Shown here in pieces: positions 7,101 through 21,149 of a stretch of DNA of 64,000 nt (its first letter is position 1; each line of letters starts with the position of its first letter). The DNA lies in NCBI GenBank assembly GCA_963816185.1, contig CAWFJJ010000006.1, positions 1,326 to 65,325 on the forward strand, written 5' to 3'. Source of the stretch: Thermoanaerobaculia bacterium. Its GTDB lineage: Bacteria; Acidobacteriota; Thermoanaerobaculia; UBA5066. Position numbers and translations under genes: made by a program. The notes under the pieces are model-generated. The model saw only the letters and a program-made list of their open reading frames with translations. It was not told the origin of the DNA and did no database searches.

Positions 7101-10100
7101 CGAGCAAGGCGAGCTCGGCCGCCGCATCGGAGATCGAGGCGGCCCGGATCTTCCTCGACGACCTGCCGCTCCTGAAGTTCCTCTCGCCCGCGTCGCGCGC
7201 CGCCGTGACCGCGAAGTTCGTTCCCGTCGCCTTTCCCTTCGGCGCCGTCATTCTCCGCGAGGGCGACCCCGCCGACGCCTTCTTCGTCGTCGTCGCCGGG
7301 AAAGCGCGGGCGGTGAAGACGGGGGAACAGGGCGAGGAGGTTTCGCTTGGCGTACTTCGGCCCGGAGACAGCTTCGGCGAGATGGGTCTTCTGGATCCTT
7401 CAGCAAAGCGGCAGGCCACCGTACGCGCCTCGAGCGCGGCGACGGTCCTCCGGCTCGACCGGAACGCCTTCGACGCGCTTCTTTCCGGTGATCCGGAGAT
7501 CCGGACCTGCCTGGAGCTCCACGTCAGGTACCGGAGCCTCCAGAACCTCTTCCGTCTCTACACTCCTTTTTCCACCCTTCCGCCGTCCGTCCTCGCCGGG
7601 CTCCTCCACCGGTTCGAGACGATCTCCGTCGCCGCCGGTGAGGCCGTCTTTCGACAGGGGGATGGCGAGGGGCCTCTCTTCGTCGTCGAGGAAGGGCGGC
7701 TTCGCGTCTTCACCGAAGACGATGGGCACCGGCGAAACATCGCTTATCTGCGAAAAGGCGACGTCTTCGGAGAGATCTCGGCCTTCACGGGGGAACCGAG
7801 AAAGGCCACGGTCGAGGCTGTCACGCCCTGCCGGCTCCTGAGCCTTCACCCGAGCGCCTTCCGGGCGGTCACGGACGCTCACCCGGAATTTCGCGCGGCC
7901 ATCGGACGACGTATCGCCCAGTACGACTATCGAAAAGAGGCCAGGGTGCCGCTCGACTTCGCCGACGAGCTCCTGCCCGCGGAGGCGCAGGTGGAGGAGG
8001 TGGGACCCGACCAGATCGACGAGGACGCCGATCGTCCGCCGGACGAATCTTCAGCGGAGGGATCCGCCGCTCCCTTCGCGACGGAAGACGGTCGGTTCGT
8101 CAAGGGGCCTCGGCGGATCCGCCGCTTTCGCTTCGTCCGGCAGATCGACGAAATGGACTGCGGCGCGGCCTCCCTCGCGATGGTCTGCCGCCACTTCGGC
8201 CGCGCGGTGAGCCTCGCGCGGATCCGGCAGCTCCTCTTCACGTCGACTGACGGCACCAGCCTCCGGGCGGTCTGCCGCGGTGCGGAGGAGCTGGGGCTCG
8301 CCGCGCGCTCCGTCAAGGCCTCGGCGAGGCACCTGGACCAGATGCCGCTCCCCGCGATCCTGCACTGGGGCGGCAACCACTGGGTCGTCCTTTACGACGT
8401 GAGCCCGACGGAGGCTCGCGTGGCCGACCCGGGGGTCGGGCTCAGGCGCCTTCCCCGCGCGGAGGTCGAGAAGGAGTGGACCGGCTACGCCGCCCTCTTC
8501 GACTACACGGAGGCGTTCGAGAAGGCTCCGGTGGGGCGCTCCAGCTTCGCCTGGCTCACCCGGTTCTTCCGGCCGCACGCGGGCGTCCTCGCGAAGGCGG
8601 CCGGCCTCGCCCTGATCGTCAGCGTCCTGCAGATGGTCCTCCCGGTCTTCAGCCAGGTCATCGTCGACCGGGTTCTCGTCGAGCGCGACGAGGGGCTGCT
8701 CCGGATCCTCCTTTTCGGGATGGGAGGCGTCCTCGTCTTCTCGACTCTCGCGATGGTCCTGCAGCGATATCTCCTGAGCTTCGCCGCGGTCCGGATCGAC
8801 GCCTCGACGCTCGACTTCGTCACGCGGCGCCTCCTGTCGCTTCCGATGTCCTACTTCTCGACGCGGAAGACAGGCGACATCCAGCGCCGCCTCATGGGCC
8901 TCCGGCAGGTGCGAGAGCTCCTCGTCCAGTACGGGGTCTCCTCGCTGACCGCCCTCTCGCAGCTCTCCGCGGTCCTGATCCTGATGTTCGTCTACAGCCC
9001 CCTCCTCGCGGGCGTCTTTCTCGCGACCGTCCCCCTCTACGCCCTTCTCATGCGGTACTCGAGGCGCCGGCTGCGTCCCGTCTTCGACACGCTCGAGGAG
9101 GCGTTCGGAAAGTATTCCGCCCAGCAGATCGACACCATCAAGGGGATCGAGACCGTCAAGTCGCTCGGGGCCGAAGGCTCCCTCCGTCAGCTGATGCTGG
9201 AGAGGTTCCTCGGCCTCGCCCGAAAGCAGTTCCGCGCCGACTTCACGGTCATGACCTACGAAGGCGCCGTCCAGGCCGTGAGCTTCCTCTCGACCGCCCT
9301 CTTCCTCTGGGCGGGGGCCGTCCAGGTGATGCGCGGGTCGCTCACCATCGGCGGGCTCGTCGCGTTCAACACCCTCGTCGCCCTCGCGAACGCCCCGATC
9401 GGGATCCTGCTCGCGACCTGGGACCACCTCCAGTACGGAACGGTTCTCCTCGACCGCCTGAACGACGTCTTCGAGCAGAAGCCCGAGCAGGGCGACGACC
9501 GGTCCCAGCTTCTCCCGGTCCGGACGCTCGCGGGAAAGGTGTCGCTCCGAAACGTCGGCTTCCGATTCGGCGGGCCCGAGTCGCCGTTGATCCTCGACGG
9601 CCTGACGTTCGACGTGGACCCGGGAAAGATGGTGGCGATCGTCGGCCGGAGCGGCTCCGGCAAGACGACCCTCGCCAAGCTCCTCTCCGGCCTCATGGAG
9701 CCGACCGAAGGATCGATTCTTTTCGACGGAGCGGACCTCAAGACGCTGAATTACCGGGACCTCAGGCGCCGCGTCGGCTTCGTCCTCCAGGAGAACTACC
9801 TCTTCGACGAGACGATCGCCCGGAACATCGCCTTCGGCGACGGCGAGCCCGACGTGGACCGGGTCCTTTGGGCCGCCCGGGTCGCGAGCGCCCACGAGTT
9901 CGTCGAGAGGTTTCCGCTCGGCTACGACACCCGGGTCGGCGAGTCGGGCCTCGCCCTCTCCGGCGGGCAGAAGCAGCGCGTCGCCATCGCGCGGGCCGTC
10001 TACAACCGTCCCCCGGTCCTGATCTTCGACGAGGCGACCAGCTCTCTCGACACCGAATCGGAGCGGGCGGTCAAGGAGAACCTCGACCGCCTTCTGGAGG

Positions 10101-10264
10101 GCCGGACGTCGTTCGTGATCGCCCACAGGCTCAGCACCATCCGCGACGCGGACGTCATCCTCGTCCTGGAGAAGGGACGTCTCGTCGAGCACGGGACTCA
10201 CGACGAGCTGATGGACCGCCAGGGGCTCTACTACTACCTGTCGAGCCAGCAGCTCGGGATCTAG
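7082..10264 (+). CDS. peptidase C39 domain-containing ABC exporter with two N-terminal cyclic-nucleotide-binding-like domains
   Basis: 1060-aa ORF. Two CAP/cNMP-type segments (..GDSFGEMGLL.. and ..GDVFGEISAF..). C39 catalytic motifs QIDEMDCGAASLAMV (Cys) and GGNHWVVLYDV (His). ABC membrane domain, Walker A GRSGSGKTT, signature LSGGQKQR, Walker B VLIFDEATS. Confidence 0.9.
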   Translation: MDMEAVTSKASSAAASEIEAARIFLDDLPLLKFLSPASRAAVTAKFVPVAFPFGAVILREGDPADAFFVVVAGKARAVKTGEQGEEVSLGVLRPGDSFGEMGLLDPSAKRQATVRASSAATVLRLDRNAFDALLSGDPEIRTCLELHVRYRSLQNLFRLYTPFSTLPPSVLAGLLHRFETISVAAGEAVFRQGDGEGPLFVVEEGRLRVFTEDDGHRRNIAYLRKGDVFGEISAFTGEPRKATVEAVTPCRLLSLHPSAFRAVTDAHPEFRAAIGRRIAQYDYRKEARVPLDFADELLPAEAQVEEVGPDQIDEDADRPPDESSAEGSAAPFATEDGRFVKGPRRIRRFRFVRQIDEMDCGAASLAMVCRHFGRAVSLARIRQLLFTSTDGTSLRAVCRGAEELGLAARSVKASARHLDQMPLPAILHWGGNHWVVLYDVSPTEARVADPGVGLRRLPRAEVEKEWTGYAALFDYTEAFEKAPVGRSSFAWLTRFFRPHAGVLAKAAGLALIVSVLQMVLPVFSQVIVDRVLVERDEGLLRILLFGMGGVLVFSTLAMVLQRYLLSFAAVRIDASTLDFVTRRLLSLPMSYFSTRKTGDIQRRLMGLRQVRELLVQYGVSSLTALSQLSAVLILMFVYSPLLAGVFLATVPLYALLMRYSRRRLRPVFDTLEEAFGKYSAQQIDTIKGIETVKSLGAEGSLRQLMLERFLGLARKQFRADFTVMTYEGAVQAVSFLSTALFLWAGAVQVMRGSLTIGGLVAFNTLVALANAPIGILLATWDHLQYGTVLLDRLNDVFEQKPEQGDDRSQLLPVRTLAGKVSLRNVGFRFGGPESPLILDGLTFDVDPGKMVAIVGRSGSGKTTLAKLLSGLMEPTEGSILFDGADLKTLNYRDLRRRVGFVLQENYLFDETIARNIAFGDGEPDVDRVLWAARVASAHEFVERFPLGYDTRVGESGLALSGGQKQRVAIARAVYNRPPVLIFDEATSSLDTESERAVKENLDRLLEGRTSFVIAHRLSTIRDADVILVLEKGRLVEHGTHDELMDRQGLYYYLSSQQLGI

Positions 10265-11466
10265 ATGGACGAGGCGCCGTTCCTCCCGAGCGACCCGCCG
10301 CCCTTCGCGGCCCGGAGCCTCGCATGGCTCCTGATCGCCCTCTTCGCAGTGGCCGCTGTCGTATCGGTGGCGGTCAAGGTTCCCGAAACGGTCGTCGCCC
10401 CGTTCGCCCTTGTGCCCATGCGCGGCACCGATCCGGTTCGCGCTCCGCACGGAGGCACGGTCACGGAGGCTCTTGCCGTCGAGGGGCGCCCCGTGGCCAA
10501 GGGCGCGAGGCTCTTTGCCATCCGGTCGCAGGAGTTCGGGGACAGGGCCTCCGAGCGGAAGGCGCTCGAAGCAGGCCTCGGCGGACTTGCCGAGAGCCTT
10601 TCCAACGCCCGGAAGAGATTCGACAGCGAGGCCGGCGAGAGGCGTGAGGAGGCCCGGAGTCTCGCCGATCGCGCGGCCTATCTCGATCGGATGCTGGCTT
10701 TGAAGAGGGAGCAGCTCGCCTTGACGCTGGAGCAGTCCGAGCGGGCGAAGAAGCTCGCCGACCAGGGGCTCGCGAGCTTCAACGACCGTTCCGACGCCCA
10801 GATCCGGCACAGCCAGACCGTCATGGAGCTCGAGCAGCTCCAGTCCGACCGGAGCGCGACCGGGAGCGCCATCGAGAAGCTTCGCGACACCGAAGCGGCG
10901 AAGGGGACCGAGTTCCACGAGGAGGAGCGGGTCCTCGAGGAGAAGATCGCTCAGGCGAGAATCAGGATCGGCGCGCTCAGCGGGGGGCGCCCTCCGCCGG
11001 CGGAGACGAATCTGGAAACGAGCTGGCCGTCACTTCTCCGTGCGACGGCACCGTTCTCGGCGTCACGGCGCGGCGGGCCGGGGCGGTGGTCCGCGAAGGC
11101 GACGTCCTCGCCGAGGTCGCCTGCTCCGCCGAGACCCTGCAGGCCGAGCTGAGCCTCCCGCAGGGAGGGCTCTCCCGGATCCACCCCGGCCAGAGCGTCC
11201 GCCTCCTCCTCGACGCGTTCCCGTACCAGCGCTACGGCGTCCGCGGGGGAAGGGTCCGGTGGGCCAGCCCCTCCGGGGTCGGGACCCGCGAGGCCGCGAC
11301 CTTCCCCGTCCTCGTCGACCTGGACGAGCAGGCCGTCCCGGCGGACGGCGAGCGCAAGCCGCTCCTGGCGGGAATGCGCGGCACCGCGCGCGTCGTCGTC
11401 GGCCGCCGCACGCTCGTCGAGTACGCCTTCGAGCCTCTCCGGCAGCTTCGGGAGAACCTCCGGTGA
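10265..11466 (+). CDS. HlyD-family membrane-fusion/adaptor protein, reading frame interrupted once
   Basis: The ATG abuts the exporter stop (TAGATG). The N-terminal ~240 codons (TM helix LAWLLIALFAVAAVV, long coiled coil) are in one frame. The C-terminal barrel part (NELAVTSPCDGTVLGVTARRAGAVVREGDVLAEV...GMRGTARVVVGRRTLVEY) is in another. The two join only if the run GGGGGG at 10982-10987 gains or loses one G. Confidence 0.75.
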
Positions 11467-11532
11467 CGCGGAAGAGCTTCGCTCGACGCGACGCAACTCA
11501 CGCTCGAGACCTTCCGGAGCGCCGACGCCGCG

Positions 11533-12438
11533 ATGCGCCGCTGCCTCGACGTGGCGCGTGCCGCCTGCCGGACCGAGCTTCCGCTCCTCCTCCTCGGCGA
11601 GTCGGGGACCGGAAAGACGCTCCTCGCCCAGGCGATCCACAACTCCTCTCCGAGAGCGTCGGCTCCCTTCGTCTCCTTCAACGCCGCGGCCCTCTCCGAC
11701 ACGCTCCTCGACAGCCAGCTCTTCGGCCACGAGAAAGGGGCGTTCACGGACGCCAAGCAGCCGCTGCGCGGCAAGTTCGAGGTCGCCGACGGCGGGACCC
11801 TCTTCATCGACGAGATCGCCGACATGAGCCCGCTCGCCCAGGCGAAGATCCTCCGGGCGGTCGAATACGGAGAGTTCGAGAGGCTCGGATCCGAGCGGCT
11901 CCGCAAGGCGGACGTCCGCCTGATCTCGGCCACCCGCCACCCGCTGGAGCGGTTTGCGAACACCGAGCAGTTCCGGAGCGATCTCTTCTACAGGCTCGCG
12001 GGGCTCACCGTCACCCTTCCCCCGCTGCGCGAGCGGCCGAACGACCTGCGCGAGCTCGTCGCGGCCTCGATCCATCGCGCCGCTCACGCACAGGGACGGA
12101 CCATCTCCGGTCTCTCCCAGAAGGCCGCCGATGCCCTTTTCTCGTATCACTGGCCCGGGAATCTCCGGGAGCTCGACCTCGTCATCCACGCCGCAGTCGC
12201 GATGACCGAGGGCTCGGTGATCGAGGAATTTGCGATCCTGGTCCGAAACAACGGCGGGCCCGGGACGTCCCCTTCCGCCGCGCGGCCGGTCCCTGCGGCC
12301 GACCTGAGCCTCCGGGCCGTCGAGCGAGACCACATTCACCGGGTCCTCCGGGAGCTCGGGGGGAACAAGACGAGGGCCGCCAGGACCCTCGGCATCTCGC
12401 GCTCCCGCCTCGAGAGGAAGCTCAACGACGCGAAGTGA
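11533..12438 (+). CDS. sigma-54-dependent transcriptional activator (bEBP) lacking an N-terminal sensory domain
   Basis: 301-aa ORF. AAA+ core GESGTGKT, GAFTDA (GAFTGA variant), LFIDEIADM, WPGNLRELD. C-terminal Fis-type HTH NKTRAARTLGISRSRLERKL. Only ~22 in-frame codons separate the HlyD stop from the first ATG, so there is no room for a receiver, GAF or PAS module. Confidence 0.85.
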   Translation: MRRCLDVARAACRTELPLLLLGESGTGKTLLAQAIHNSSPRASAPFVSFNAAALSDTLLDSQLFGHEKGAFTDAKQPLRGKFEVADGGTLFIDEIADMSPLAQAKILRAVEYGEFERLGSERLRKADVRLISATRHPLERFANTEQFRSDLFYRLAGLTVTLPPLRERPNDLRELVAASIHRAAHAQGRTISGLSQKAADALFSYHWPGNLRELDLVIHAAVAMTEGSVIEEFAILVRNNGGPGTSPSAARPVPAADLSLRAVERDHIHRVLRELGGNKTRAARTLGISRSRLERKLNDAK

Positions 12439-12573: not shown

Positions 12574-12589
12574 TGGAACGGTCCTTGCT
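12574..12589 (+). promoter_or_regulatory. sigma-54 (-24/-12) promoter heading the peptide-gene array
   Basis: TGGAAC-GGTCC-TTGCT. GG (12575-76) and GC (12587-88) have the canonical 12-nt register of TGGCAC-N5-TTGC. Located 135 nt downstream of the bEBP stop and 42 nt upstream of the first leader-type RBS and start. Confidence 0.6.
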
Positions 12590-12630
12590 CCGCCCGGGCC
12601 CGGTCCCGAATTCGAGAAAGGAGAAACGAC

Positions 12631-12772
12631 GTGAACCACGAAGAAAACCCCCTCGGGCTTCTACAAGAAGGCGGTGAAGGACCTCGACGTCAAGCCCGCC
12701 AAGGTGACGTCCGCCCGGGCGTCCAGTCTCGAACCGGCCGTCAGCGACCGCGAAGAAGGCGAAGAACCGATC
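12631..12772 (+). pseudogene. decayed copy of the Lys-rich leader peptide gene
   Basis: Preceded by the family RBS (GAAAGGAGAAACGAC-GTG). The nucleotide sequence aligns to the leader consensus only with several small indels. The motif KDLDVKPAK is readable only in a shifted frame and both GG motifs are lost. Confidence 0.5.
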
Positions 12773-12913
12773 ATGAAGAAGACCCCGAAGAAAAGCGCCC
12801 GGACAAGCTTCTCAAAGAAGACGCGGTCAAGGACCTCGCACCAAGCTCCGCCAAGGGCAGGCGGCACGAGGCGGCACGGGAAGGTCTGTGACAGGGGTGG
12901 ATCGAGCATCTGA
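12773..12913 (+). pseudogene. divergent or decayed leader-peptide gene copy (46-codon ORF still open)
   Basis: MKKTPKKSARTSFSKKTRSRTSHQAPPRAGGTRRHGKVCDRGGSSI. The N-terminus (MKKTPKK) and C-terminus (..RGG-SSI) match the family, but the central AVKDLxxKPAKGG block is encoded out of frame (DAVKDLAPSSAKG in another frame). Confidence 0.4.
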
Positions 12914-12968
12914 CGAGCGACCTCCAGCTCGGCAAGGTTCTCGTCCGAGAGATTCCTGTCACTGCGAC

Positions 12969-13190: not shown

Positions 13191-13376
13191 ATGAAGAAGA
13201 CCACGAAGAAAAGCTCCTCGAAGGCCTCTCACAAGAGAGCCCGCAAAAACCTCGACGTCACGCCTGCCAAGGGCGGGACCGTCCGGGGAGGCGGCAAGGC
13301 GGGCTCGGGCAGGACTACTGTCAGCGACCTCCAGATCAGCAAAGTTGTCGACAAGAGTTCAGCCGTGCTGTTCTGA
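13191..13376 (+). CDS. precursor peptide A: MKKTTKKSSSKASHKRARKNLDVTPAKGGTVRGG / GKAGSGRTTVSDLQISKVVDKSSAVLF
   Basis: ATG preceded by AAAGGAGAAACGCC. 61 codons. Family leader plus a 27-residue C-terminal part. Confidence 0.8.
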   Translation: MKKTTKKSSSKASHKRARKNLDVTPAKGGTVRGGGKAGSGRTTVSDLQISKVVDKSSAVLF

Positions 13377-13399
13377 GAGCGACCTGCTCGAAGACTGGC

Positions 13400-14542
13400 A
13401 TGGTACGGCTTCCGACGATCCCGGACACTCCCGCCAAAGGCCCGGCTCCGCTCCATGCACGCTGGCTCGAAGAGGCCCTCGGGGGAAAGATCCCCTCCGA
13501 GCCCCACGCCACGTGCGAGAGCTGCCCCATGCTCCCTGTGCCCGGCGGCGCGGACGGGGCCCGGGACGCGGTCTTCTTCAATCCCAAGACGAAGTGCTGC
13601 ACCTACCTGCCGAGGCTTCACAACTTTCTCGTCGGCGCGATCCTGGCAGACGAGGCGCCCGACATGGCCGAAGGGCAGGCGCGCGTTCTCGAGAGGATCG
13701 GAAAAAGGGTCGGCGTGACGCCGCTTTGGGTCGGCGCCGGTGGAGCGTACAGCCTCATGTACGACCACGGTGACGGGGTCTTCGGCCACAGCGAGGCGAT
13801 GCGCTGCCCCTACTACCTCGAGGATCGGATCGGCGGCGGCTGCGGGATATGGCGTCACCGCAATTCCATCTGCATGACCTGGTTCTGCAAGCACGAGCGC
13901 GGGGCCCGGGCGCTGCGGTTCTGGGACTCGGCCAAAGAGCTGCTGATGGCCGTCGAGGAGAACCTCGCGATCCACTGCCTCGTCACCCTCGGTTTCGACG
14001 ACGCGGCGCTCCGGACCAATTTCCCGTTCAAGGTTCCGAAGTCTCAGCGGACGGAAACCGTGAAGGGGGACGAGCTCGACGGCACGGTGAGCCCCGAGAG
14101 GTACAAGGCCCTCTGGGGAAGCTGGGCTGGCCGCGAGAAGGAGCTCTACCTCCTAAGCGACGGGATCGTCCGGAACATGGAGTGGAAGGACGTCGAGCGA
14201 ATCGGCGGCGCGAACGTCGCTCTCCTCTCGCAGCTCGCACGCGCTGCCTACCAGACGGCAGCCAGCGACGCTCTTCCGGAGCGCCTCGAAATCGGCAACC
14301 TCAACGTCATCGGCGCCGGGCGTAAGACCGTGCGCCTCGGCACCTACAGCCCATACGACCCCATCGATGCTCCTGCCGCGCTTCTTCCGGCATTGCCCGC
14401 CTTCGACGGCTCCAGGGTACCCGACGCCCTCCGCGCGATCGAGAAGGATCATGGGCTCGTCCTGAGCCCCGAGCTCGTCCGAAAGCTCGTCGACTACGGC
14501 CTGCTCCGCGCGGTGACCGCCCCCGAAGACGAGCGAGTCTAA
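13400..14542 (+). CDS. Cys-rich protein, paralogue 1 (YkgJ/FliB-like CxxC...CC metal-cluster motifs); candidate peptide-tailoring enzyme
   Basis: 380 codons from ATG 13400 within ORF 13127..14542, 23 nt after precursor A. Conserved Cys pattern C-ESC...KCCTYLPRL...MRCPYYLEDRIGGGCGIWRHRNSICMTWFCKHE. The CPYYLEDRxxxxC...RxxxC block resembles the PF03692 (CxxCxxCC / flagellin lysine-N-methylase FliB) family as I remember it. Confidence 0.7.
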   Translation: MVRLPTIPDTPAKGPAPLHARWLEEALGGKIPSEPHATCESCPMLPVPGGADGARDAVFFNPKTKCCTYLPRLHNFLVGAILADEAPDMAEGQARVLERIGKRVGVTPLWVGAGGAYSLMYDHGDGVFGHSEAMRCPYYLEDRIGGGCGIWRHRNSICMTWFCKHERGARALRFWDSAKELLMAVEENLAIHCLVTLGFDDAALRTNFPFKVPKSQRTETVKGDELDGTVSPERYKALWGSWAGREKELYLLSDGIVRNMEWKDVERIGGANVALLSQLARAAYQTAASDALPERLEIGNLNVIGAGRKTVRLGTYSPYDPIDAPAALLPALPAFDGSRVPDALRAIEKDHGLVLSPELVRKLVDYGLLRAVTAPEDERV

Positions 14543-14605
14543 CCAGAACTCGATGAGAAGGCCGAAGCCGGGTCATGAACAAATCAGGGCAAAAGGAGAA
14601 ACGAC

Positions 14606-14737
14606 GTGAAGAAGACCACGAAGAAAAGCCCCTCGAAGGCATCTCACAAGAAGGCGGTCAAGAACCTCGAGCTCAAAACGGTTAAGAGCGGGACGGTCCG
14701 AGGAGGAGTACCCGCGGTCCAAAAGTCAGGGAGATAG
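14606..14737 (+). CDS. precursor peptide B: MKKTTKKSPSKASHKKAVKNLELKTVKSGTVRGG / VPAVQKSGR
   Basis: GTG start 6 nt after AAAGGAGAAACGAC. 43 codons. TAG stop at 14735. Confidence 0.8.
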   Translation: MKKTTKKSPSKASHKKAVKNLELKTVKSGTVRGGVPAVQKSGR

Positions 14738-14747
14738 GAGGAGCAAC

Positions 14748-14885
14748 ATGAAAAAGATCGCGAAGAAGGGCGCCCCGAAGGCCTCTCACAAGAAATCGGT
14801 CAAGGACCTCGAGATCAAGCCCGCCAAGGGCGGGACGGGCGAGACGGTCCGTGGCGGCAAGATGATCGACAAGATCCACATCTGA
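14748..14885 (+). CDS. precursor peptide C: MKKIAKKGAPKASHKKSVKDLEIKPAKGGTGETVRGG / KMIDKIHI
   Basis: ATG after GGAGGAGCAAC. 45 codons. Leader carries the 3-residue insert GET. Confidence 0.8.
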   Translation: MKKIAKKGAPKASHKKSVKDLEIKPAKGGTGETVRGGKMIDKIHI

Positions 14886-14921
14886 CGAGCGCCGCCTGCT
14901 GCAAGGATCGCCCGACCTTCG

Positions 14922-15145
14922 ATGATGAAGACAGGCCGCCGAGGACCAAGCCGTCGCCGGGGGTTCGTCCTCCTCAGAGATCTCATCCCTCGAAACGACC
15001 CCAAAGGCGGGTCGGCCGGGAAAACGGTATTCGGTGAACGTCCCACGGTCCTCGAGACAGAAGAAAAGCACCCCCATGAGGATGTTCCGGCCGAACGAAG
15101 GCAGACGCCGGGTCACGGCCGAAACAGGAGGAAAGGAGACACGAT
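14922..15145 (+). repeat. R-element copy 2 (intact 75-codon ORF 14922..15149: MMKTGRRGPSRRRGFVLLRDLIPRNDPKGGSAGKTVFGERPTVLETEEKH...)
   Basis: Same element as 12969, 15772, 16505, 18386 and 18945. The ORF stop overlaps the precursor D start (ATGA). Confidence 0.7.
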
Positions 15146-15286
15146 ATGAAGAAGACCACGAAGAAGACCCCGAAGGCCTCGCACAAGAAGGCGGTCAGGA
15201 ACCTCGACGTCAAGCCCGCGAAGGGTGGAACGGTCCGTGGCGGAATACATGGTGGCTGGGACCAGCTCGCGAACAAGAAAGTTTGA
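15146..15286 (+). CDS. precursor peptide D: MKKTTKKTPKASHKKAVRNLDVKPAKGGTVRGG / IHGGWDQLANKKV
   Basis: ATG after AAAGGAGACACGAT. 46 codons. Confidence 0.8.
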   Translation: MKKTTKKTPKASHKKAVRNLDVKPAKGGTVRGGIHGGWDQLANKKV

Positions 15287-15373
15287 GTTCCTGGAACACC
15301 CTTCTTAGAAAGTCCGGTCGAACGAAGGTAGAAGCCGGGTCACGACCGAAACAGGAAGTAAGGAGAAGACGTC

Positions 15374-15520
15374 ATGAACAACCCCAAGAAGAAGAGCGCC
15401 TCGAAGGCCTCCCACAAGAGGAAGGTGAAGGACCTCGAGATCAAGCCCGCCAAAGGAGGGACCGTCCGTGGAGGCAAGGTCTTTCCCAAGGTGACCACGG
15501 GTTTGCTCGACAAGTACTAG
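15374..15520 (+). CDS. precursor peptide E: MNNPKKKSASKASHKRKVKDLEIKPAKGGTVRGG / KVFPKVTTGLLDKY
   Basis: ATG after GTAAGGAGAAGACGTC. 48 codons. Confidence 0.8.
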   Translation: MNNPKKKSASKASHKRKVKDLEIKPAKGGTVRGGKVFPKVTTGLLDKY

Positions 15521-15596
15521 CGAGGCTGAAGTTACCCCTTTCGTCGCGCGACCTCGCGCTCGGTCACGACCGAAACAGGAAGAAGGGAGACACGAC

Positions 15597-15734
15597 ATGA
15601 AGAAGAACGCGAAGAAGAACCCTCCGAAGGGTTCCCGAAAGAACGCAATCAAGGACCTCGAGATCAAGCCCGCCAAGGGCGGGACGGACGGGACGGTCCG
15701 TGGCGGCAAGTTCGAGACCAAGATCCACATCTGA
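15597..15734 (+). CDS. precursor peptide F: MKKNAKKNPPKGSRKNAIKDLEIKPAKGGTDGTVRGG / KFETKIHI
   Basis: ATG after AGAAGGGAGACACGAC. 45 codons. Leader insert DGT. Confidence 0.8.
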   Translation: MKKNAKKNPPKGSRKNAIKDLEIKPAKGGTDGTVRGGKFETKIHI

Positions 15735-15771
15735 CGAGGGCCGCTTGCCGTAAGGGCCGATCGGCCCCTCG

Positions 15772-15996
15772 ATGATGAAGACAGTCCGCCGAGGACCAAG
15801 CCTTCGCCAGGGATTCGTTCCCCTCAGGGACCTCGTGCCCTGAAACGACCCCAAGGGGGGGTCCGCTGGGAAGACGGTATTCGGCGAACGTCCCCCGGTT
15901 TCCGTGACAGAAATGACACAGCGCTTCCAGGATGTTCCGGCCGCACGAAGGCAGAAGCCGGGTCACGGTCGAAACAGTAAGTAAGGAGAAGACGTC
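15772..15996 (+). repeat. R-element copy 3 (ORF interrupted by TGA at 15841: MMKTVRRGPSLRQGFVPLRDLVP*)
   Basis: Nucleotide-level homologue of the other R copies, but with an in-frame stop inside the otherwise conserved PRNDPKGG block. Confidence 0.65.
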
Positions 15997-16128
15997 ATGA
16001 ACAACCCCAAGAAGAAGAGCGCCTCGAAGGCTTCCCACAAGAAGACGGTCAAGAACCTCGAGGTCACGCCCGTCAAGGGCGGGAAGGTCCGTGGGGGCTT
16101 CCCGACGCCATGGAAAAACAAGGTCTAA
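15997..16128 (+). CDS. precursor peptide G: MNNPKKKSASKASHKKTVKNLEVTPVKGGKVRGG / FPTPWKNKV
   Basis: ATG after GTAAGGAGAAGACGTC. 43 codons. Confidence 0.8.
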   Translation: MNNPKKKSASKASHKKTVKNLEVTPVKGGKVRGGFPTPWKNKV

Positions 16129-16174
16129 TGCCGCCCGAAATGACGCGCGAATCCAGAAGAAAGGAGAAACGAAC

Positions 16175-16306
16175 ATGAAAAAGACCTCGAAGAAGAGCGC
16201 CTCGAAGGCATCTCACAAGAAGGCGGTCAAGGACCTCGAGGTCAAGCACGCCAAGAGCGGGACGGTTCGCGGAGGACTGCCCCCCGGTCCACCAACCTAC
16301 AAATGA
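16175..16306 (+). CDS. precursor peptide H: MKKTSKKSASKASHKKAVKDLEVKHAKSGTVRGG / LPPGPPTYK
   Basis: ATG after GAAAGGAGAAACGAAC. 43 codons (3' part of ORF 16091..16306). Confidence 0.8.
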   Translation: MKKTSKKSASKASHKKAVKDLEVKHAKSGTVRGGLPPGPPTYK

Positions 16307-16327
16307 GTGGACAAAATGAGAACCGAC

Positions 16328-16453
16328 ATGAAGAAGACCACGAAGAAAGACCCTTCGAAGGCCTCTAAGAAGAAGGCGGTCAAAAACCTCGAGGTCAAGC
16401 CCGCGAGGGGTGGAACGGTCCGCGGAGGCTGGGACCCGACCAAAGCGCGATAG
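16328..16453 (+). CDS. precursor peptide I: MKKTTKKDPSKASKKKAVKNLEVKPARGGTVRGG / WDPTKAR
   Basis: 41 codons. No obvious SD. An in-frame ATG at 16316 would add MRTD. Starts 22 nt after precursor H. Confidence 0.7.
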   Translation: MKKTTKKDPSKASKKKAVKNLEVKPARGGTVRGGWDPTKAR

Positions 16454-16504
16454 CGTCGAAACGAGTCACTCGAAACGACCCCTTCTCCGAAAGTGAACCG
16501 CGAG

Positions 16505-16725
16505 ATGAAGACAGGCCGCGGTAAGACAAAGCCCTCGCCGGGGTTCGTCCCCCTCAGGGACCTCATCCCCCGAAACGATCCCAAGGGCGGGTCGGCCGGG
16601 AAGACGGTATTCGGCGAGCGTCCCCCGGTCCTCGAGGCAGAAGAAAAGCACCCCTTCAAGGATGTTCCGGCCGAACGAAGGCAAAAGCCGGGTCACGACC
16701 GAAACAGGAAGAGAGGAGAGACGAC
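16505..16725 (+). repeat. R-element copy 4 (ORF 16493/16505..16729: MKTGRGKTKPSPGFVPLRDLIPRNDPKGGSAGKTVFGERPPVLEAEEKH...)
   Basis: Belongs with copy 1 to a subclass that differs from copies 2, 5 and 6 by a compensated pair of 1-nt indels near the 5' end. Preceded by two TCGAAACGA boxes (16456, 16470). Confidence 0.7.
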
Positions 16726-16914
16726 ATGAAGAAGAACACGAAGAAGACAGCCTCCAAGGCAAAGGGGCCCAAGGCGACGAAGAATCTCGACGTCAAGCCC
16801 GCCAAGGGCGCGAAGGTCCGTGGTGGAACTGTAAACAAGGGGTGGATCGAAGTTTCATCCTTCAGTTTTAATGCGGAACCCACCGTCAGTGTGACCGCGA
16901 AGAAGCCGTCCTGA
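16726..16914 (+). CDS. precursor peptide J: MKKNTKKTASKAKGPKATKNLDVKPAKGAKVRGG / TVNKGWIEVSSFSFNAEPTVSVTAKKPS
   Basis: 62-aa ORF in the track. RBS GAGAGGAGAGACGAC. Stop overlaps the GT41 start (TGATG). Confidence 0.8.
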   Translation: MKKNTKKTASKAKGPKATKNLDVKPAKGAKVRGGTVNKGWIEVSSFSFNAEPTVSVTAKKPS

Positions 16915-18386
16915 TGAGCACCGGCTGGCCGAAGGGCTGCCGCATGCTCGCGGCGGGCAAGTATGCGAGCGGCCTCGCGGCCTTCGAACCGGCCGTCCGG
17001 GCGAGTCCGGACTCTGCGGCCGCACGATTCCACCTCGCCCGGGCGAGCTTCGCCCTAGGGGAGGTCGAGAGGGCGACCCGGCAGCTTCGGGCGGCACTCC
17101 GGATCCGCACGGATATCCGAGCTCTGCGGTTCCTGGCCACGATCGCCCCGTTCGACCCGCGCCTCGACCACGCGGCGATCCTGAAGGTCCGCCGCGCGCT
17201 GGCCGCTGCGGTTCGCGCTCGAACCGTCGCGCCCGCCAGGGCGATCGTCGTCGGGAGCCCGGCCAGGAAAGTGCTCAAGGTTGGCTACGTCTCGTCTTTC
17301 TTCGACAAGGACAACTGGATGAAGCCGGTGTGGGGGCTGATCGATCACCACGACGCCAAGAGGGTGGAGATCCACCTTTTTGCCGACGTGCCGCGCGTTT
17401 CTGCGGTGCGTCGGCGGGCGCGTGCGAGCGCGGCGCACGTCCACGACATCTCGCGCCTTGACAACGATGTGGCCGCGCGGCTGATCGCCCGGACGGGGCT
17501 CGACGTCCTCGTGGATCTCAATCAGTACAGCCGGGTCGGCCGGATGCCGCTTTTTTCGACCAGGCTGGCGCCGGTCGTCGTCGCGTGGTTCAACATCTTC
17601 GGGACCTCGGGAATGCCGGTTTTCGACGCGCTGATCGGCGATCGATGGCTCGTCCGCGACGTCGAGAAGCCTTGGTACCTCGAAAAGATCGTGAAACTCC
17701 CGTTCTCGTCGCTGACTTTCGCGGTGGACTATCCGGTCCCTGACGTCGGGCCGCCGCCTTTCTTGCGCAACGGCTTCGTCACGTTCGGAAGTCTTTCGTC
17801 GCTGTACAAGCTCAACGACGGCGTCGTCGGCACCTGGGCCGACATTCTGAAGCGGAGCCCGGGAAGCCGTCTTCTCCTGGGCAATGCGGATCTGGGAGAC
17901 CCCGGCAACCGAGCGCACACTCTCGAGCGATTCACCGCGCGCGGGATCGAGCCCGCGCGCGTCACGTTGCTCGGGCCCGACGAGCACTACGAGTTTCTCC
18001 GAAACTACGACGCGATTGACCTCGCTCTCGACACGTTCCCCTACAACGGAGGCACGACGACCACCGAGGCGATCTGGCAAGGAGTCCCGGTCGTCGCGTT
18101 CTTGGGGGACCGGTGGATCTCGCGTACCAGCGCCTCCCTGCTGGAAAACGCCGGTCTTGAGGGCTTCGTCAGCCGGGACGTCCGCGGTTATGTCGAAACG
18201 GCCGTCCGGTGGGGGTCGGGAGCAAAGGCGGAAGAACGGAGAGAGCTCCGCCGCACGATGAGGAAACGCCTGAAAGCCTCACCCGTCACCGACTGCGCGA
18301 GCCTCGCGCGCTGCATCGAGGACGCTTACGTCCAATTGTGGGGCGCGAGGACTCGCTCCGCTCTCCCTCAGCGGATGACAGCGTGA
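16914..18386 (+). CDS. TPR-containing GT41-family glycosyltransferase (OGT/SPINDLY-like)
   Basis: 490-aa ORF. N-terminal TPR-like helices. C-terminal block VTFGSLSSLYKLND...LLLG...IDLALDTFPYNGGTTTTEAIWQGVPVVAF matches the GT41 catalytic-domain signature (DTFPYxGxTTxxxALWxGVPVV). Confidence 0.85.
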   Translation: MSTGWPKGCRMLAAGKYASGLAAFEPAVRASPDSAAARFHLARASFALGEVERATRQLRAALRIRTDIRALRFLATIAPFDPRLDHAAILKVRRALAAAVRARTVAPARAIVVGSPARKVLKVGYVSSFFDKDNWMKPVWGLIDHHDAKRVEIHLFADVPRVSAVRRRARASAAHVHDISRLDNDVAARLIARTGLDVLVDLNQYSRVGRMPLFSTRLAPVVVAWFNIFGTSGMPVFDALIGDRWLVRDVEKPWYLEKIVKLPFSSLTFAVDYPVPDVGPPPFLRNGFVTFGSLSSLYKLNDGVVGTWADILKRSPGSRLLLGNADLGDPGNRAHTLERFTARGIEPARVTLLGPDEHYEFLRNYDAIDLALDTFPYNGGTTTTEAIWQGVPVVAFLGDRWISRTSASLLENAGLEGFVSRDVRGYVETAVRWGSGAKAEERRELRRTMRKRLKASPVTDCASLARCIEDAYVQLWGARTRSALPQRMTA

Positions 18387-18606
18387 TGAAGACAGGCCGT
18401 CGAGGACCAAGCCGTCGCCGCGGGTTCGTCCTCCTCAGAGATCTCGTCCCCCGAAACGATCCCAAGGGCGGATCGGCCGGGAAGACGGTATTCAGCGAGC
18501 GTCCCCCGGTCCTCGAGACAGAAGATAAGCATCACCTTAAAGATGTTCCGGCCGAACGAAGGCAAAAGCCGGGTCACGACCGAAACAGGAAGAAAGGAGA
18601 AACGAC
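18386..18606 (+). repeat. R-element copy 5 (ORF 18386..18610: MKTGRRGPSRRRGFVLLRDLVPRNDPKGGSAGKTVFSERPPVLETEDKHHLKD...)
   Basis: The ATG overlaps the GT41 stop (TGATG). The stop overlaps the precursor K start (GTGA). Confidence 0.7.
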
Positions 18607-18741
18607 GTGAAGAAGATCACGAAGAAAGGTCCCTCGAAGGCCCCCAAGAAGAGGACGACGAAGAATCTCGACGTCAAGCCCGCCAAGGGCGGGACGATCC
18701 GCGGGGGGAGCCTCCCCCGACAGTGGAAGTGGATCGAGTGA
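18607..18741 (+). CDS. precursor peptide K: MKKITKKGPSKAPKKRTTKNLDVKPAKGGTIRGG / SLPRQWKWIE
   Basis: GTG after AAAGGAGAAACGAC. 44 codons. Confidence 0.8.
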   Translation: MKKITKKGPSKAPKKRTTKNLDVKPAKGGTIRGGSLPRQWKWIE

Positions 18742-18776
18742 CGCCGGCCGACGGCCAGAAGGAAAGGAGAAACGCC

Positions 18777-18908
18777 ATGAAAAAGACCACGAAGAAGAAC
18801 CCTCCGAAGGTGTATCGAAAGAAGGCAATCAAGGACCTCGAGATCAAGCCCGCCAAGGGCGGGACGGGCGAGACAGTCCGTGGCGGCAAGGATAAGATCC
18901 ACATCTGA
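18777..18908 (+). CDS. precursor peptide L: MKKTTKKNPPKVYRKKAIKDLEIKPAKGGTGETVRGG / KDKIHI
   Basis: ATG after GAAAGGAGAAACGCC. 43 codons. Leader insert GET as in precursor C. Confidence 0.8.
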   Translation: MKKTTKKNPPKVYRKKAIKDLEIKPAKGGTGETVRGGKDKIHI

Positions 18909-18944
18909 CGAGAGCCGCTTCCTGCAAGGACCGCCCGATCCTCG

Positions 18945-19168
18945 ATGATGAAGACAGGCCGCCGAGGACCAAGCCGTCGCCGGGGGTTCGTCCTCCTCAG
19001 AGATCTCGTCCCCCGAAACGATCCCAAGGGCGGGTCGGCCGGGAAGACGGTATTCGGCGAGCGTCCCCCGGTCCTCGAGACAGAAGATAAGCATCACCTT
19101 AGAGATGTTCCGGCCGAACGAAGGCAGAAGCCGGGTCACGACCGAAACAGGAAGAGAGGAGAAACGAC
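18945..19168 (+). repeat. R-element copy 6 (ORF 18945..19172: MMKTGRRGPSRRRGFVLLRDLVPRNDPKGGSAGKTVFGERPPVLETEDKHHLRD...)
   Basis: Near-identical to copies 2 and 5. Most differences from them fall on third codon positions of this frame (manual comparison). Confidence 0.7.
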
Positions 19169-19312
19169 GTGAAGAAGATCACGAAGAAAGGTCCCTCGAA
19201 GGCTTCCAAGAAGAGGACGACGAAGAATCTCGACGTCAAGCCCGCCAAGGGCGCGACGGTTCGTGGCGGAGTGCATGGCGGTTGGGACCAGATCGCGAAC
19301 AAGAAGATTTGA
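19169..19312 (+). CDS. precursor peptide M: MKKITKKGPSKASKKRTTKNLDVKPAKGATVRGG / VHGGWDQIANKKI
   Basis: GTG after AGAGGAGAAACGAC. 47 codons. Confidence 0.8.
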   Translation: MKKITKKGPSKASKKRTTKNLDVKPAKGATVRGGVHGGWDQIANKKI

Positions 19313-19393
19313 GTTCCTGGAACACCCTTCATAGGTCTGGTCGAACCACTACAAGCCGGGTTACGACCGAAACAGGAAGAGAGGAGACACGAC

Positions 19394-19537
19394 ATGAAGA
19401 AGAACACGAAGAAGACAGCCTCCAAGGCAAAGGGGCCCAAGGCGACGAAGAACCTAGAGGTCAAACCCGCCAAGGGGGCGTCGGTCCGTGGCGGAGTGCA
19501 TGGTGGCTGGGACCAGGTCGGGAACAAGAAGTATTAG
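19394..19537 (+). CDS. precursor peptide N: MKKNTKKTASKAKGPKATKNLEVKPAKGASVRGG / VHGGWDQVGNKKY
   Basis: ATG after AGAGAGGAGACACGAC. 47 codons. The stop abuts the Cys-rich paralogue 2 ORF. Confidence 0.8.
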   Translation: MKKNTKKTASKAKGPKATKNLEVKPAKGASVRGGVHGGWDQVGNKKY

Positions 19538-20782
19538 TTGCCCTCTGATCAAGTGACCTCTCCGAAGACCCGCGCGGTCCGGCTCCCGTCGATCACCGAT
19601 GCTCCCGCCAGGGGCCTGGCACCGCTTCATGCGCGCTGGCTCGAGGCGGCGCTCGGGGGCAAGATTCCTTCCGAGCCACACGCGGCGTGCGACAACTGCG
19701 CGATGCTGCCGGTGTCCGGAGGCGCGGATGAAGAGCGCGGCGCAGTCTTCTTCAACCCCAGGACGAAGTGCTGCACTTACCTGCCGAGACTTCACAACTT
19801 TCTCGTCGGGGCGATCCTCGCAGACGAAGCGACCGATATGGCCGAAGGGCGTGCCCGCGTCCTGGAGAGGATCGGGAAGAAGGTCGGCGTGACGCCGCTC
19901 TGGGTCGGCGCCGGCGGCGCGTACAGCCTCGTGTACGACCACGGAGACGGGGTCTTCGGCCACAGCGAGGCGATGCGCTGCCCCTACTATCTCGAAGACC
20001 GGATCGACGGCGGCTGCGGGGTGTGGCGTCACCGCAATTCCATCTGCATGACCTGGTTCTGCAAGCATGAGCGCGGGGCCCCGGCGCTGCGGTTCTGGGA
20101 CTCGGCCAAAGAGCTGCTGATGGCCGTCGAGGAGAATCTCGCGATCCATTGCCTCGTCACTCTGGGTTTCGACGACGCGGCGCTCCGGACCAATTTCCCG
20201 TTCAAGGTTCCGAAATCTCAGCGGTCGGAAACCGTGAAGGGGGACGAGCTCGACGGCACGGTGAGCCCGGAACGATACAAGGCTCTCTGGGGGAGCTGGA
20301 CGGGCCGCGAGGAGGAGCTCTACCGCCAATGCGACGCGATCGTCCGAGACATCGAGTGGAAGGACGTCGAGCGCATCGGCGGCGCGAGCGTCGCACTCCT
20401 GTCGCAGCTCGCGCGCGCGGCCTATCAGGCGGTGATCCGTGACGACCTTCCCGAGCGGCTCGAGATCGGCAATCTCAGCGTCATCGGCACGGGGCGCGGG
20501 ACCTTGCGCCTGGCCACGTACAGCGCCTACGACCCCATCGACGCCCCGGCCGCGCTTCTCCCCGTGCTTCCCGCGTTCGACGGCTCCAGGGTGCCCGACG
20601 CCCTTCGCGCGATCGAAAGGGACCATGGGCTCGTCCTGAGCCCCGAGCTCGTCCGAAAGCTCGTCGACTACGGCCTGCTCCGCGCGGTGGACGCCCCCGA
20701 AGACGAGCAAGTCTGGCGAAACTCCATGAAAAGGCGGAAGCCGGGTCATCGCCAAAACAGGATGAAAGGAGAAACGACATGA
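19538..20782 (+). CDS. Cys-rich protein, paralogue 2 (YkgJ/FliB-like motifs)
   Basis: 414-aa ORF. Start is TTG 19538 or GTG 19553. About 47 substitutions over ~378 aligned residues versus paralogue 1 (manual count), and all 9 Cys of paralogue 1 are conserved. It lacks the stop used by paralogue 1 and reads 22 codons further, ending in an ATGA overlap with precursor O. Confidence 0.7.
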   Translation: MPSDQVTSPKTRAVRLPSITDAPARGLAPLHARWLEAALGGKIPSEPHAACDNCAMLPVSGGADEERGAVFFNPRTKCCTYLPRLHNFLVGAILADEATDMAEGRARVLERIGKKVGVTPLWVGAGGAYSLVYDHGDGVFGHSEAMRCPYYLEDRIDGGCGVWRHRNSICMTWFCKHERGAPALRFWDSAKELLMAVEENLAIHCLVTLGFDDAALRTNFPFKVPKSQRSETVKGDELDGTVSPERYKALWGSWTGREEELYRQCDAIVRDIEWKDVERIGGASVALLSQLARAAYQAVIRDDLPERLEIGNLSVIGTGRGTLRLATYSAYDPIDAPAALLPVLPAFDGSRVPDALRAIERDHGLVLSPELVRKLVDYGLLRAVDAPEDEQVWRNSMKRRKPGHRQNRMKGETT

Positions 20783-20910
20783 AGAAGATCACGAAGAAAG
20801 GTTCCTCAAAGGCTTCCAAGAAGAAGGCGGTCAGGAACCTCGACGTCAAGCCTGCGAAGGGCGGGACGGTCCGTGGAGGGGCAACCAGACTCGACAAGTG
20901 GCCCGGGTAG
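20779..20910 (+). CDS. precursor peptide O: MKKITKKGSSKASKKKAVRNLDVKPAKGGTVRGG / ATRLDKWPG
   Basis: ATG after GAAAGGAGAAACGAC. 43 codons. Confidence 0.8.
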   Translation: MKKITKKGSSKASKKKAVRNLDVKPAKGGTVRGGATRLDKWPG

Positions 20911-20934: not shown

Positions 20935-21149
20935 AGGCCGGCTACGCGGTACTTCCGCGCGAAGAGCGTGAGCCGCGCGGAGAGGTGGAGAAGCTGAGCG
21001 AGCTGCGTCGCACGATGAGGATACGGTTGCGGGCTTCGCCGGTCACCGATTGCCCAAGGCTCGCGCGCCGCATGGACGATGTCTACCTCCGGCTATCGGG
21101 CGCGAGCCCTCGTCGGAAACGACCCCGGGCCGCGCTCCCGCGTAATTGA
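20935..21149 (+). pseudogene. C-terminal remnant of a second GT41 glycosyltransferase gene
   Basis: ..ELRRTMRIRLRASPVTDCPRLARRMDDVYLRL.. aligns to the last ~45 residues of the intact GT41 protein (ELRRTMRKRLKASPVTDCASLARCIEDAYVQLW). Nothing corresponding to the TPR or catalytic parts precedes it. Confidence 0.7.

Follow-up and report, generated by a model that had tools for sequence, protein, structure and literature searches.

What does a bacterium make from a tandem array of small genes whose products share a lysine-rich leader and end in short, variable tails? Such an array (positions 13191-20910, + strand) lies in a 64,000-nt stretch of DNA from an uncultured Thermoanaerobaculia (Acidobacteriota) bacterium, hereafter the window, to which all coordinates refer unless a related locus is named. 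It comprises 15 intact genes, A to O, of 41-62 codons each (Table 1). Our analysis suggests, with a probability of roughly 70%, that the locus is a new multi-precursor system, similar to those for peptides that are made on ribosomes and modified after translation (RiPPs), that uses double-glycine (GG) leaders and exports peptides mimicking Hcp, the structural protein that makes up the tube of type VI secretion systems (T6SS).

A 70-nt leader-coding repeat is present in 16 copies between 12.6 and 20.9 kb, + strand, and all 15 intact copies have a ribosome-binding site and an ATG or GTG start. The products follow the layout MKKxxKKxxSKASxKKxVK[ND]L[DE]VKPAKGG-TVRGG, followed by a tail, or core, of 6-28 residues. 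The leaders are rich in lysine, and [VI]RGG, a GG with a hydrophobic residue at -4, closes the leader in 15/15 precursors. The tails listed in a preliminary description of this DNA were all recovered at their positions, on the + strand and letter for letter; precursor A and two degenerate leader copies stand 5' of the range that it covered. Database entries identical to 12 of the window peptides all come from one 87.6-kb public contig, and a profile of the window peptides retrieved 145 relatives. When a profile of the leader alone was searched against 1.84 billion representatives, 56 of the 58 matches were peptides of 43-81 residues, and the remaining two (2368 and 582 residues) matched over short internal stretches only. 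Precursors D, C, E, J and K had no match in NCBIfam at E up to 1, the NHLP/Nif11 models included, and Pfam and NCBIfam scans of the precursors gave nothing beyond a sub-threshold Hcp match of precursor A.

The origin of many tails, which the preliminary description had overlooked, is Hcp. We compared 123 tails of the family with 120 Hcps, using 60 shuffles per tail and a threshold of z >= 3. Data showed that 62 tails (56 unique) beat every shuffle, where about 2 were expected by chance; their alignments span nearly the entire tail at a mean identity of 73%, with up to 21/21 identical residues in the best case, and jointly they cover 153 of the 161 Hcp positions. Core A of the window is identical to Hcp P0241 at 24/27 residues (z = 31), has PDB matches to Hcp1 alone and reaches E 0.0011 against Pfam T6SS_HCP, which falls short of the gathering cut-off. 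The cores of D, M and N reach z values of 13-14; that of D matches Hcp P0242 at 11 of 12 aligned residues (z = 13) and was also found by tblastn of Hcp against the window. Core J (z = 5.7) is comparable to the P0203 core DVHKGWIDVSSFSFGLSQTG. Several family members had already been labelled 'Hcp' by JGI. The exact strings GAGSGRTTVGELQISKVVDKSSAVLFQKCATGEH and C-terminal IHGGWDQI[AG]NKKY occur in one genuine Hcp subfamily, one member of which is encoded between TssC, ImpE and TssA genes on a Bryobacteraceae contig. Since the Hcp C-terminus reads IHGGWDQI[AG]NKKY, Hcp's final 13 residues make up the tails of D, M and N. Cleavage of these three precursors at their third GG, a possibility raised earlier, was rejected, because HGGWDQ is native to Hcp itself and it is V-[RKQ]-G-G that distant relatives conserve instead.

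A chimera stitched from tails matched Hcp1 (1y12) over nearly its full length (E 1e-34) and was 50-55% identical, over 97-99% of the length, to more than 1,500 full-length PF05638 proteins; its pieces were ordered with knowledge of Hcp, so that it demonstrates the content of the tails and not their order. The best individual peptides score 19.7 and 21.4 bits over 23-33 residues and do not attain the Pfam gathering threshold (23.5). Having no whole domain, the peptides stand outside the Hcp family. For B, C, E, F, G, H, I, K, L and O the Hcp match is not significant, most of these cores being too short for the test; core L matches Hcp KDEIHI weakly (5/6, p = 0.08). Assignment of KIHI, ..KWIE, WDPTKAR and FPTPWKNKV to the Hcp strand HK[DG][EW]I[EH][VIL] or to the C-terminus was abandoned, the strings being too short for significance, and the resemblance of ..KWIE to Hcp HK.WIE is a lead only. 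Descent of the leader itself from the C-terminal region of Hcp was likewise considered. The leader segment L[DE]VKPAKGGTVRGG (for example at 15206-15280 and 19397-19534) was aligned to Hcp FDYHPQKADGSQAPA. Leader DL.VKPAK falls on Hcp EYKPQK, which directly precedes the C-terminal tail, and in D, M and N the two are collinear; at a profile-profile (hhalign) P of 0.16 such descent is not established.

Hcp segments are also found outside this array. GTDB species genomes were scanned with the Cys-rich protein family described below, a candidate enzyme, and the small open reading frames (ORFs) beside it were then examined. In about five phyla, GG leaders of unrelated sequence are followed by cores made of Hcp segments, which reach z values of up to 19. 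They include RKAGKGQQEFLS (11/11 identical to Hcp) and ITKLVDKSSAVLFQKCATGEHFGK (21/24) in other Acidobacteriota, ASDIFAKIGDIKGESLDIKHRAW (19/21) in Gemmatimonadota and DMFLKLDGIKGES in Myxococcota, and such cores are likewise present in Methylomirabilota/Rokubacteria. Compared with a genuine Bryobacteraceae hcp gene, the window cores are identical at 54/64 residues; at the identical degenerate residues, just 20 of 51 codons are unchanged. In addition, clearly diverged leaders precede identical cores. Taken with the recurrence behind unrelated leaders in several phyla, the retained residues, diverged codons and identical cores behind diverged leaders argue that the peptide sequence, its likeness to Hcp included, is under constraint, and that likeness to Hcp is itself probably selected.

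The same data bear on the view that the locus is a functionless graveyard, left by the decay of tandemly duplicated hcp genes. That the cores are pieces of Hcp, that some copies are degenerate, and that the locus holds a remnant of a glycosyltransferase family 41 (GT41) gene and a frameshifted HlyD gene would all suit such decay. However, amino acids have been kept while synonymous sites diverged, identical cores follow diverged leaders, and no intact copy has lost its leader and GG motif, its start codon or its ribosome-binding site. The design recurs in about five phyla with unrelated leaders, and the living ancestor, a leader fused to full-length Hcp, was absent among the 1.84 billion representatives, where leader-bearing peptides have at most 81 residues. 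We therefore consider a graveyard extremely unlikely. The Hcp-like cores could also serve within the producing cell, regulating its own T6SS, for example by titrating an Hcp-sensing sigma-54 activator of the kind that VasH of Vibrio cholerae is said to be, with export acting as a sink. A sigma-54 activator without a sensor is indeed conserved in the cluster. Export is favoured by the design of the leader and by a dedicated exporter whose peptidase is intact, T6SS genes are not nearby and many cores are not Hcp-like, which makes internal regulation very unlikely.

Not all tails are significantly Hcp-like, and we asked how the tails group. Within the array, a three-residue insert in the leader (GGT-GET or DGT-VRGG) is exclusive to the KIHI precursors C, F and L, as the preliminary description had noticed. 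Among 150 family members sampled, the insert is present in 4/4 peptides ending in IHI and in 0/146 others, and since the KIHI genes also share KDLEIKPAKGG, this group is a single paralogue clade. The more general proposal that tails co-vary with leaders held for the KIHI group only; elsewhere leaders and tails have recombined (J/N, K/M, M/D). A group defined by Trp combined with Lys proved heterogeneous. The C-termini of other arrays, for which random variation had been named as the outcome that would count against grouping, prove not to be random. VPAVQKSG[RK] was found four more times in other assemblies (P0214, P0227, P0238 and P0239), FPTPW[KR].K. twice more, KMIDKIHI once more and GWD..NKK. 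at least five more times, and the ..KWIE and PPDPDRWKR families likewise recur in independent assemblies. Recurrence elsewhere rules out a chance grouping. The core of G is identical in P0221 behind a different leader, the core of precursor O is comparable to P0183 MKPPVKWPG, and Lys occurs in 146/150 tails.

LPAVQ[KR], represented in the window by precursor B, is a core motif that recurs across phyla, in L002 (9159-9912, - strand), L012 (9154-9357, - strand), L016, L020, L037, L038 and L059/L061. Examples are LPAVQKVREAAARMS in L012 and LPAVQKVREAA in L002, which we take to correspond to DUF1559-type pseudopilins in the stretch that follows their N-terminal helix. A Polyangiaceae core joins an N-terminal Hcp segment to LPAVQKTYKLF. 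The core LPAVQKVREAAARM presumably also resembles DUF1559-type or type-II/IV pseudopilins; no pseudopilin gene was found for comparison with it among the related loci examined. Another widespread core type, which is not Hcp-like, K(A)KTADKAxDAxDxYIRG, adjoins the candidate enzyme, usually in single copy (Table 1), and may be its ancestral substrate.

How, then, do diverged leaders come to precede the same core? J and N have a common leader, as do K and M, and the tails are unrelated within each pair; M and D have a common tail and different leaders. The leader DNA of K and M is 97% identical. From 5' to 3', identity between K and M is 45/47 in the 5' untranslated region (UTR), 84/87 in the leader up to KG[GA], 10/14 in the TVRGG codons and 21/48 in the 3' flank, the cores being unalignable, whereas the corresponding values for M and D are 40/46, 64/84, 14/15 and 49/55, with 35/42 in the core. 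This pattern shows that the TVRGG codons, core and 3' flank are swapped as a cassette between conserved flanks, with a breakpoint immediately 5' of the TVRGG codons. A second kind of rearrangement is seen 3' of precursor O, where a C-terminal GT41 remnant is 72% identical in DNA to positions 18217-18355; together with the duplicated gene for the Cys-rich protein, it shows that the locus underwent a segmental duplication.

Six precursors are preceded by a near-invariant 5' UTR segment, CGAACGAAGG.AGAAGCCGGGTCACGACCGAAACAGGAAG, with 0 occurrences expected by chance. It doubles as one flank of the recombining core cassette and is preceded by CCGGCC-N7-GGCA, with GG and GC at sigma-54 spacing. A structured RNA was considered for this UTR and rejected, with no Rfam match and folding no better than that of shuffles.

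The 200-nt element 5' of A, D, G, J, K and M is filled by a second family of conserved small ORFs of about 75 residues, M(M)KTGRRGPSRRRGFVLLRDLVPRNDPKGG-SAGKTVFGERPPVLETE, the stop of which overlaps the start of the next precursor (ATGA). Third codon positions in this family vary 2-3 times more than the others (0.27 vs 0.12 and 0.09), and +1/-1 indels restore the reading frame. Homologues of the form LL.DLAPR.[DE]VKGG[ST]GKR[VIL]FGE adjoin the candidate enzyme in distant Acidobacteriota (L019, L020, L036 and L063). The second family may be a further class of GG-leader substrate.

The array also encodes two paralogous Cys-rich proteins of 380 residues, candidates for a maturase that binds the leader. 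Their family has at least 219 metagenomic relatives and 259 members in GTDB species genomes, all of these being metagenome-assembled genomes (MAGs); the closest genome is a Thermoanaerobaculia MAG with an enzyme 90% identical. The family has eight conserved Cys, six of them invariant and two present in at least 90% of sequences. An AlphaFold2 model (pLDDT 87) predicts a domain at the C-terminus that resembles a RiPP recognition element (RRE). In most inspected loci a small GG-leader ORF lies beside the candidate enzyme, often together with a cyclic-nucleotide-binding (cNMP) peptidase-containing ATP-binding cassette (ABC) transporter (PCAT) and HlyD, and across phyla no other gene accompanies a GG-leader ORF as constantly as the candidate enzyme does, even at sites that lack a nearby exporter.

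These findings bear on whether the peptides are modified at all. In known systems an exporter alone suffices for the maturation of GG peptides. The products could accordingly be unmodified, like class-II bacteriocins or pheromones, with the Cys-rich protein serving in regulation, as a chaperone or in immunity; a modifiable motif shared by the extremely diverse cores is lacking, and no recognized RiPP enzyme family appeared in the Pfam and NCBIfam scans. The RRE-like domain, a typical part of maturases that depend on a leader, the eight conserved Cys and the constant pairing with a GG-leader ORF, even without a nearby exporter, speak against this, and we judge unmodified peptides to be rather unlikely.

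If the cores are modified, as we prefer to think, the chemistry might be that of PF03692 (CxxCxxCC), which we take to include FliB, a lysine methylase acting on flagellin. Like PF03692/YkgJ proteins, to which its N-terminal Cys domain is weakly similar, the Cys-rich family has two conserved Cys clusters, the second of which aligns with C..C.I[YW]..R...C.T[FW]; it differs in the spacing of the first cluster (CxxC-x23-CC) and in having an extra helical domain and the C-terminal RRE. An hhalign comparison with one PF03692 protein gave P = 0.047 over 38 columns, and the window protein itself had no PF03692 match. The frequency of Lys in the cores and the weak family matches to PF03692 would fit Lys-methylated products. 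Against them stand the absence of an NCBIfam match, including to any FliB model there, a predicted model without a Rossmann or S-adenosylmethionine-binding fold, and the Lys-richness of Hcp, from which the core Lys may be inherited. Lysine N-methylation, a specific chemistry within the modified-peptide reading that we favour, is thus quite unlikely. A stand-alone PF03692 protein of 138 residues lies 2 kb from a homologue of the candidate enzyme on one metagenomic contig (L007, 5307-5723, - strand).

Upstream of the array lie genes that could express and export its products. The predicted exporter has Pfam matches to cNMP_binding (3e-46), Peptidase_C39 (PF03412, 1e-32), ABC_membrane and ABC_tran, and its C39 catalytic motifs, with Cys in DCGAASLAM and His in NHWVVL, are intact in the sequence. 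The HlyD-type adaptor is frameshifted in the window; its orthologue in L001, a locus of a close relative, is intact, with 400 residues and a Pfam Beta-barrel_AprE match. The frameshift is either an error of sequencing or assembly, or a sign that the exporter's partner is defective in this strain. The regulator matches Sigma54_activat (2.7e-58) and HTH_8 (2e-11), and between its gene and the first of the leader copies, where the array begins, lies the promoter-like site. Inside the array no sigma-70 promoters and no + strand terminators were found, and apparent terminators on the minus strand were put down to the AAGAAG-rich leaders and discarded as artefacts.

The exporter clusters with HlyD, the Cys-rich protein and small ORFs in L001, L002, L003 and L005 as well, and V-[RKQ]-GG is kept behind otherwise different leaders in distant relatives. 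The rotamase-like gene is 79% identical to a gene in the same position in L001, and a similar gene is present in L003. The GT41 gene, with a tetratricopeptide repeat (TPR) region, is otherwise seen in L001 only. The anti-phage defence models of PADLOC gave no match for GT41, and generic domain matches only for the exporter and activator. Two prolyl oligopeptidase (S9) genes are present in the window, at 2884-5133 (-) and 42290-44437 (+); the one that lies about 1 kb upstream of the cluster has no conserved counterpart in L001.

Table 1. Features of the precursor array and its surroundings in the window, with selected features of related loci (named by locus).
Feature	Position	Strand	Remarks
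PpiC-type rotamase-like protein	6099..7097	+	first gene of conserved cluster; Pfam Rotamase_2 E 1.4e-5
PCAT exporter	7082..10264	+	two cyclic-nucleotide-binding, C39 peptidase, ABC membrane and ATPase domains
HlyD/AprE-type periplasmic adaptor	10265..11466	+	frameshift near 10990
Sigma-54 enhancer-binding protein	11464..12438	+	AAA+ and HTH_8, without sensory domain; start placed by L001 alignment
Sigma-54-type promoter-like site TGGAACGGTCCTTGCT	12574..12589	+	one mismatch to TGGCAC-N5-TTGCW
Two degenerate leader copies	12623..12915	+	frameshifted; three-frame translation and raw sequence; leader repeat copy at 12635
Second-family copy	12969-13190	+	frameshifted; upstream of A
5' UTR segment	13137-13176, 15092-15131, 15319-15358, 16672-16711, 18553-18592, 19115-19154		six copies
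Precursor A	13191..13376	+	core GKAGSGRTTVSDLQISKVVDKSSAVLF; Hcp residues 45-71
Cys-rich protein 1	13400..14542	+	380 residues; candidate leader-binding maturase with predicted C-terminal RRE
Precursor B	14606..14737	+	core VPAVQKSGR; LPAVQ[KR] family
Precursor C	14748..14885	+	core KMIDKIHI; leader insert GET
Second-family copy	14922..15149	+	75 residues (..FVLLRDLIPRNDPKGG-SAGKTVFGERP..); stop overlaps D start
Precursor D	15146..15286	+	core IHGGWDQLANKKV; Hcp C-terminus, residues 149-161
Precursor E	15374..15520	+	core KVFPKVTTGLLDKY; Hcp likeness not significant
Precursor F	15597..15734	+	core KFETKIHI; leader insert DGT
Second-family copy	15775-16000	+	in-frame stop; upstream of G
Precursor G	15997..16128	+	core FPTPWKNKV
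Precursor H	16175..16306	+	core LPPGPPTYK
Precursor I	16328..16453	+	core WDPTKAR
Second-family copy	16493..16729	+	intact; upstream of J
Precursor J	16726..16914	+	core TVNKGWIEVSSFSFNAEPTVSVTAKKPS; includes Hcp residues 22-32 (GWIEVSSFSF)
TPR and GT41 (OGT/SPY-like) glycosyltransferase	16914..18386	+	Glyco_transf_41 (PF13844) 3.6e-35; TPR_19 5e-9
Second-family copy	18386..18610	+	upstream of K
Precursor K	18607..18741	+	core SLPRQWKWIE; ..KWIE family
Precursor L	18777..18908	+	core KDKIHI; leader insert GET
Second-family copy	18945..19172	+	upstream of M
Precursor M	19169..19312	+	core VHGGWDQIANKKI; Hcp C-terminus; mosaic of K-type leader and D-type cassette
Precursor N	19394..19537	+	core VHGGWDQVGNKKY; Hcp C-terminus behind J-type leader
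Cys-rich protein 2	19538..20782	+	paralogue, 87% identical to protein 1; tblastn; GTG at 19577 possible true start
Precursor O	20779..20910	+	core ATRLDKWPG
GT41 C-terminal remnant (second gene)	20979..21149	+	64% protein identity to GT41 residues 437-475
Second-family copies	L001 9367-9591 and 11749-12078		
K(A)KTADKAxDAxDxYIRG cores	L005 7651-7803; L008 7751-7945; L013 2839-3006; L003 9761-9943		
K(A)KTADKAxDAxDxYIRG core	L035 7713-7889	-	

Taken together, these results suggest the following mechanism. Each small gene specifies a Lys-rich leader (MKKxxKK..K[DN]L[DE]VKPAKGG-TVRGG) and a short core, and would be transcribed from the putative sigma-54 promoter under control of the adjacent activator. 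The C-terminal RRE of the Cys-rich proteins, predicted from their fold, would bind the leader, and their presumably metal-binding N-terminal part would modify the core, to which GT41 may add a sugar. The cNMP-gated C39/ABC exporter and HlyD would then cut after V-R-G-G and export the core, as the catalytic motifs and the conserved motif suggest; distant relatives conserve no GG other than V-[RKQ]-GG, which favours cleavage at this point. A large fraction of the cores are near-verbatim Hcp segments (45-71 in A, 22-32 in J and the last 13 residues in D, M and N), joined by the recurring families LPAVQ[KR], PPGPP/PPDPDRWKR, FPTPWK and ..KWIE/KIHI, and recombination at the conserved TVRGG codons and in the downstream untranslated region, likewise conserved, supplies new combinations of leader and core. 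In the last and weakest step, the exported products may mimic segments of Hcp and so act among bacteria, in interference or signalling related to T6SS. The earlier suggestion of short, processed and exported products thus stands in outline, in the leader-plus-core design and the C39/ABC exporter, and the side-chain chemistry suggested with it is plausible only.

Several observations count against this mechanism. Roughly half of the cores, including 10/15 in the window, have no significant likeness to Hcp, most of these being at most 9 residues long, and frequent Lys aside, the cores lack any residue or motif that they all share. The 64-kb window holds no T6SS genes. The Cys-rich proteins match no Pfam family, NCBIfam, PADLOC model or PDB sequence (a family profile was used for PDB), and the PF03692 matches, seen in 21 of 53 family members at E below 5 (best 0.002), are all sub-threshold. 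With regard to export, tblastn of the L001 HlyD gave two pieces in different frames (10265-10993 and 10987-11463), and no gene for an outer-membrane factor was seen at the locus. The sigma-54 motif has 17 matches window-wide against 13 expected, which is not significant. Finally, a role as Hcp mimics in interference or signalling, although it is the reading that we prefer, is purely what we infer.

In its widest form, this reading holds that soil bacteria of several phyla secrete a gene-encoded library, shuffled by recombination, of short, possibly modified mimics of conserved Hcp segments, made with a new class of RRE-guided metalloenzyme, and thereby disturb the secretion nanomachines of their neighbours or report on them. 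Taken as a whole this is doubtful; if true, it would amount to a peptide counter-measure or alarm against contact-dependent weapons. The export of peptide mimics of T6SS subunits by bacteria becomes testable here, with dozens of candidate sequences supplied. A new RiPP-like family would be defined by the Cys-rich RRE enzyme, which has 259 relatives among GTDB species genomes. It is unusual for cores to be systematically sampled from the structural protein of a secretion machine, and the locus offers a clean case of cassette-like shuffling of leaders and cores.

We found no published description of Hcp-fragment precursors or of the Cys-rich enzyme, in a literature search whose coverage excludes most subscription journals. 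Among known systems, the array resembles the prochlorosin type (NHLP/Nif11, ProcM) in its many paralogous precursors with a conserved GG leader and hypervariable short cores, in relying on one promiscuous leader-guided enzyme, and in leader removal by a C39 peptidase/ABC exporter; in both, part of the precursor would descend from a larger protein, there the leader or precursor. Unlike that type, the array has neither LanM nor any further maturase that is known and shows no homology to NHLP/Nif11, its candidate enzyme being Cys-rich with an RRE, and it is the cores, not the leaders, that are copied, from the structural protein Hcp. With ComA/ComC, LagD and PCAT1 it shares a C39 domain with catalytic Cys and His, an ABC transporter, an HlyD-type partner and a GG with a hydrophobic residue at -4. 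HetC of Nostoc is a cNMP-domain PCAT with an N-terminal cyclic-nucleotide-binding module like that of the array exporter (PMC10986499). These GG-exporter systems differ from the array in that its leader is very Lys-rich with two GG motifs, that one locus carries 15 substrates together with an RRE enzyme and GT41, and that the cores have 6-28 residues and are Hcp-derived. Compared with Hcp itself (PF05638; Hcp1 PA0085, PDB 1y12), the array peptides do not contain the whole domain and cannot form the beta-barrel ring. Compared with the RRE-bearing maturases PqqD, MccB, TigE, LanB and lasso B1, the candidate enzyme of the array has an unrelated catalytic part and carries its predicted RRE at the C-terminus.

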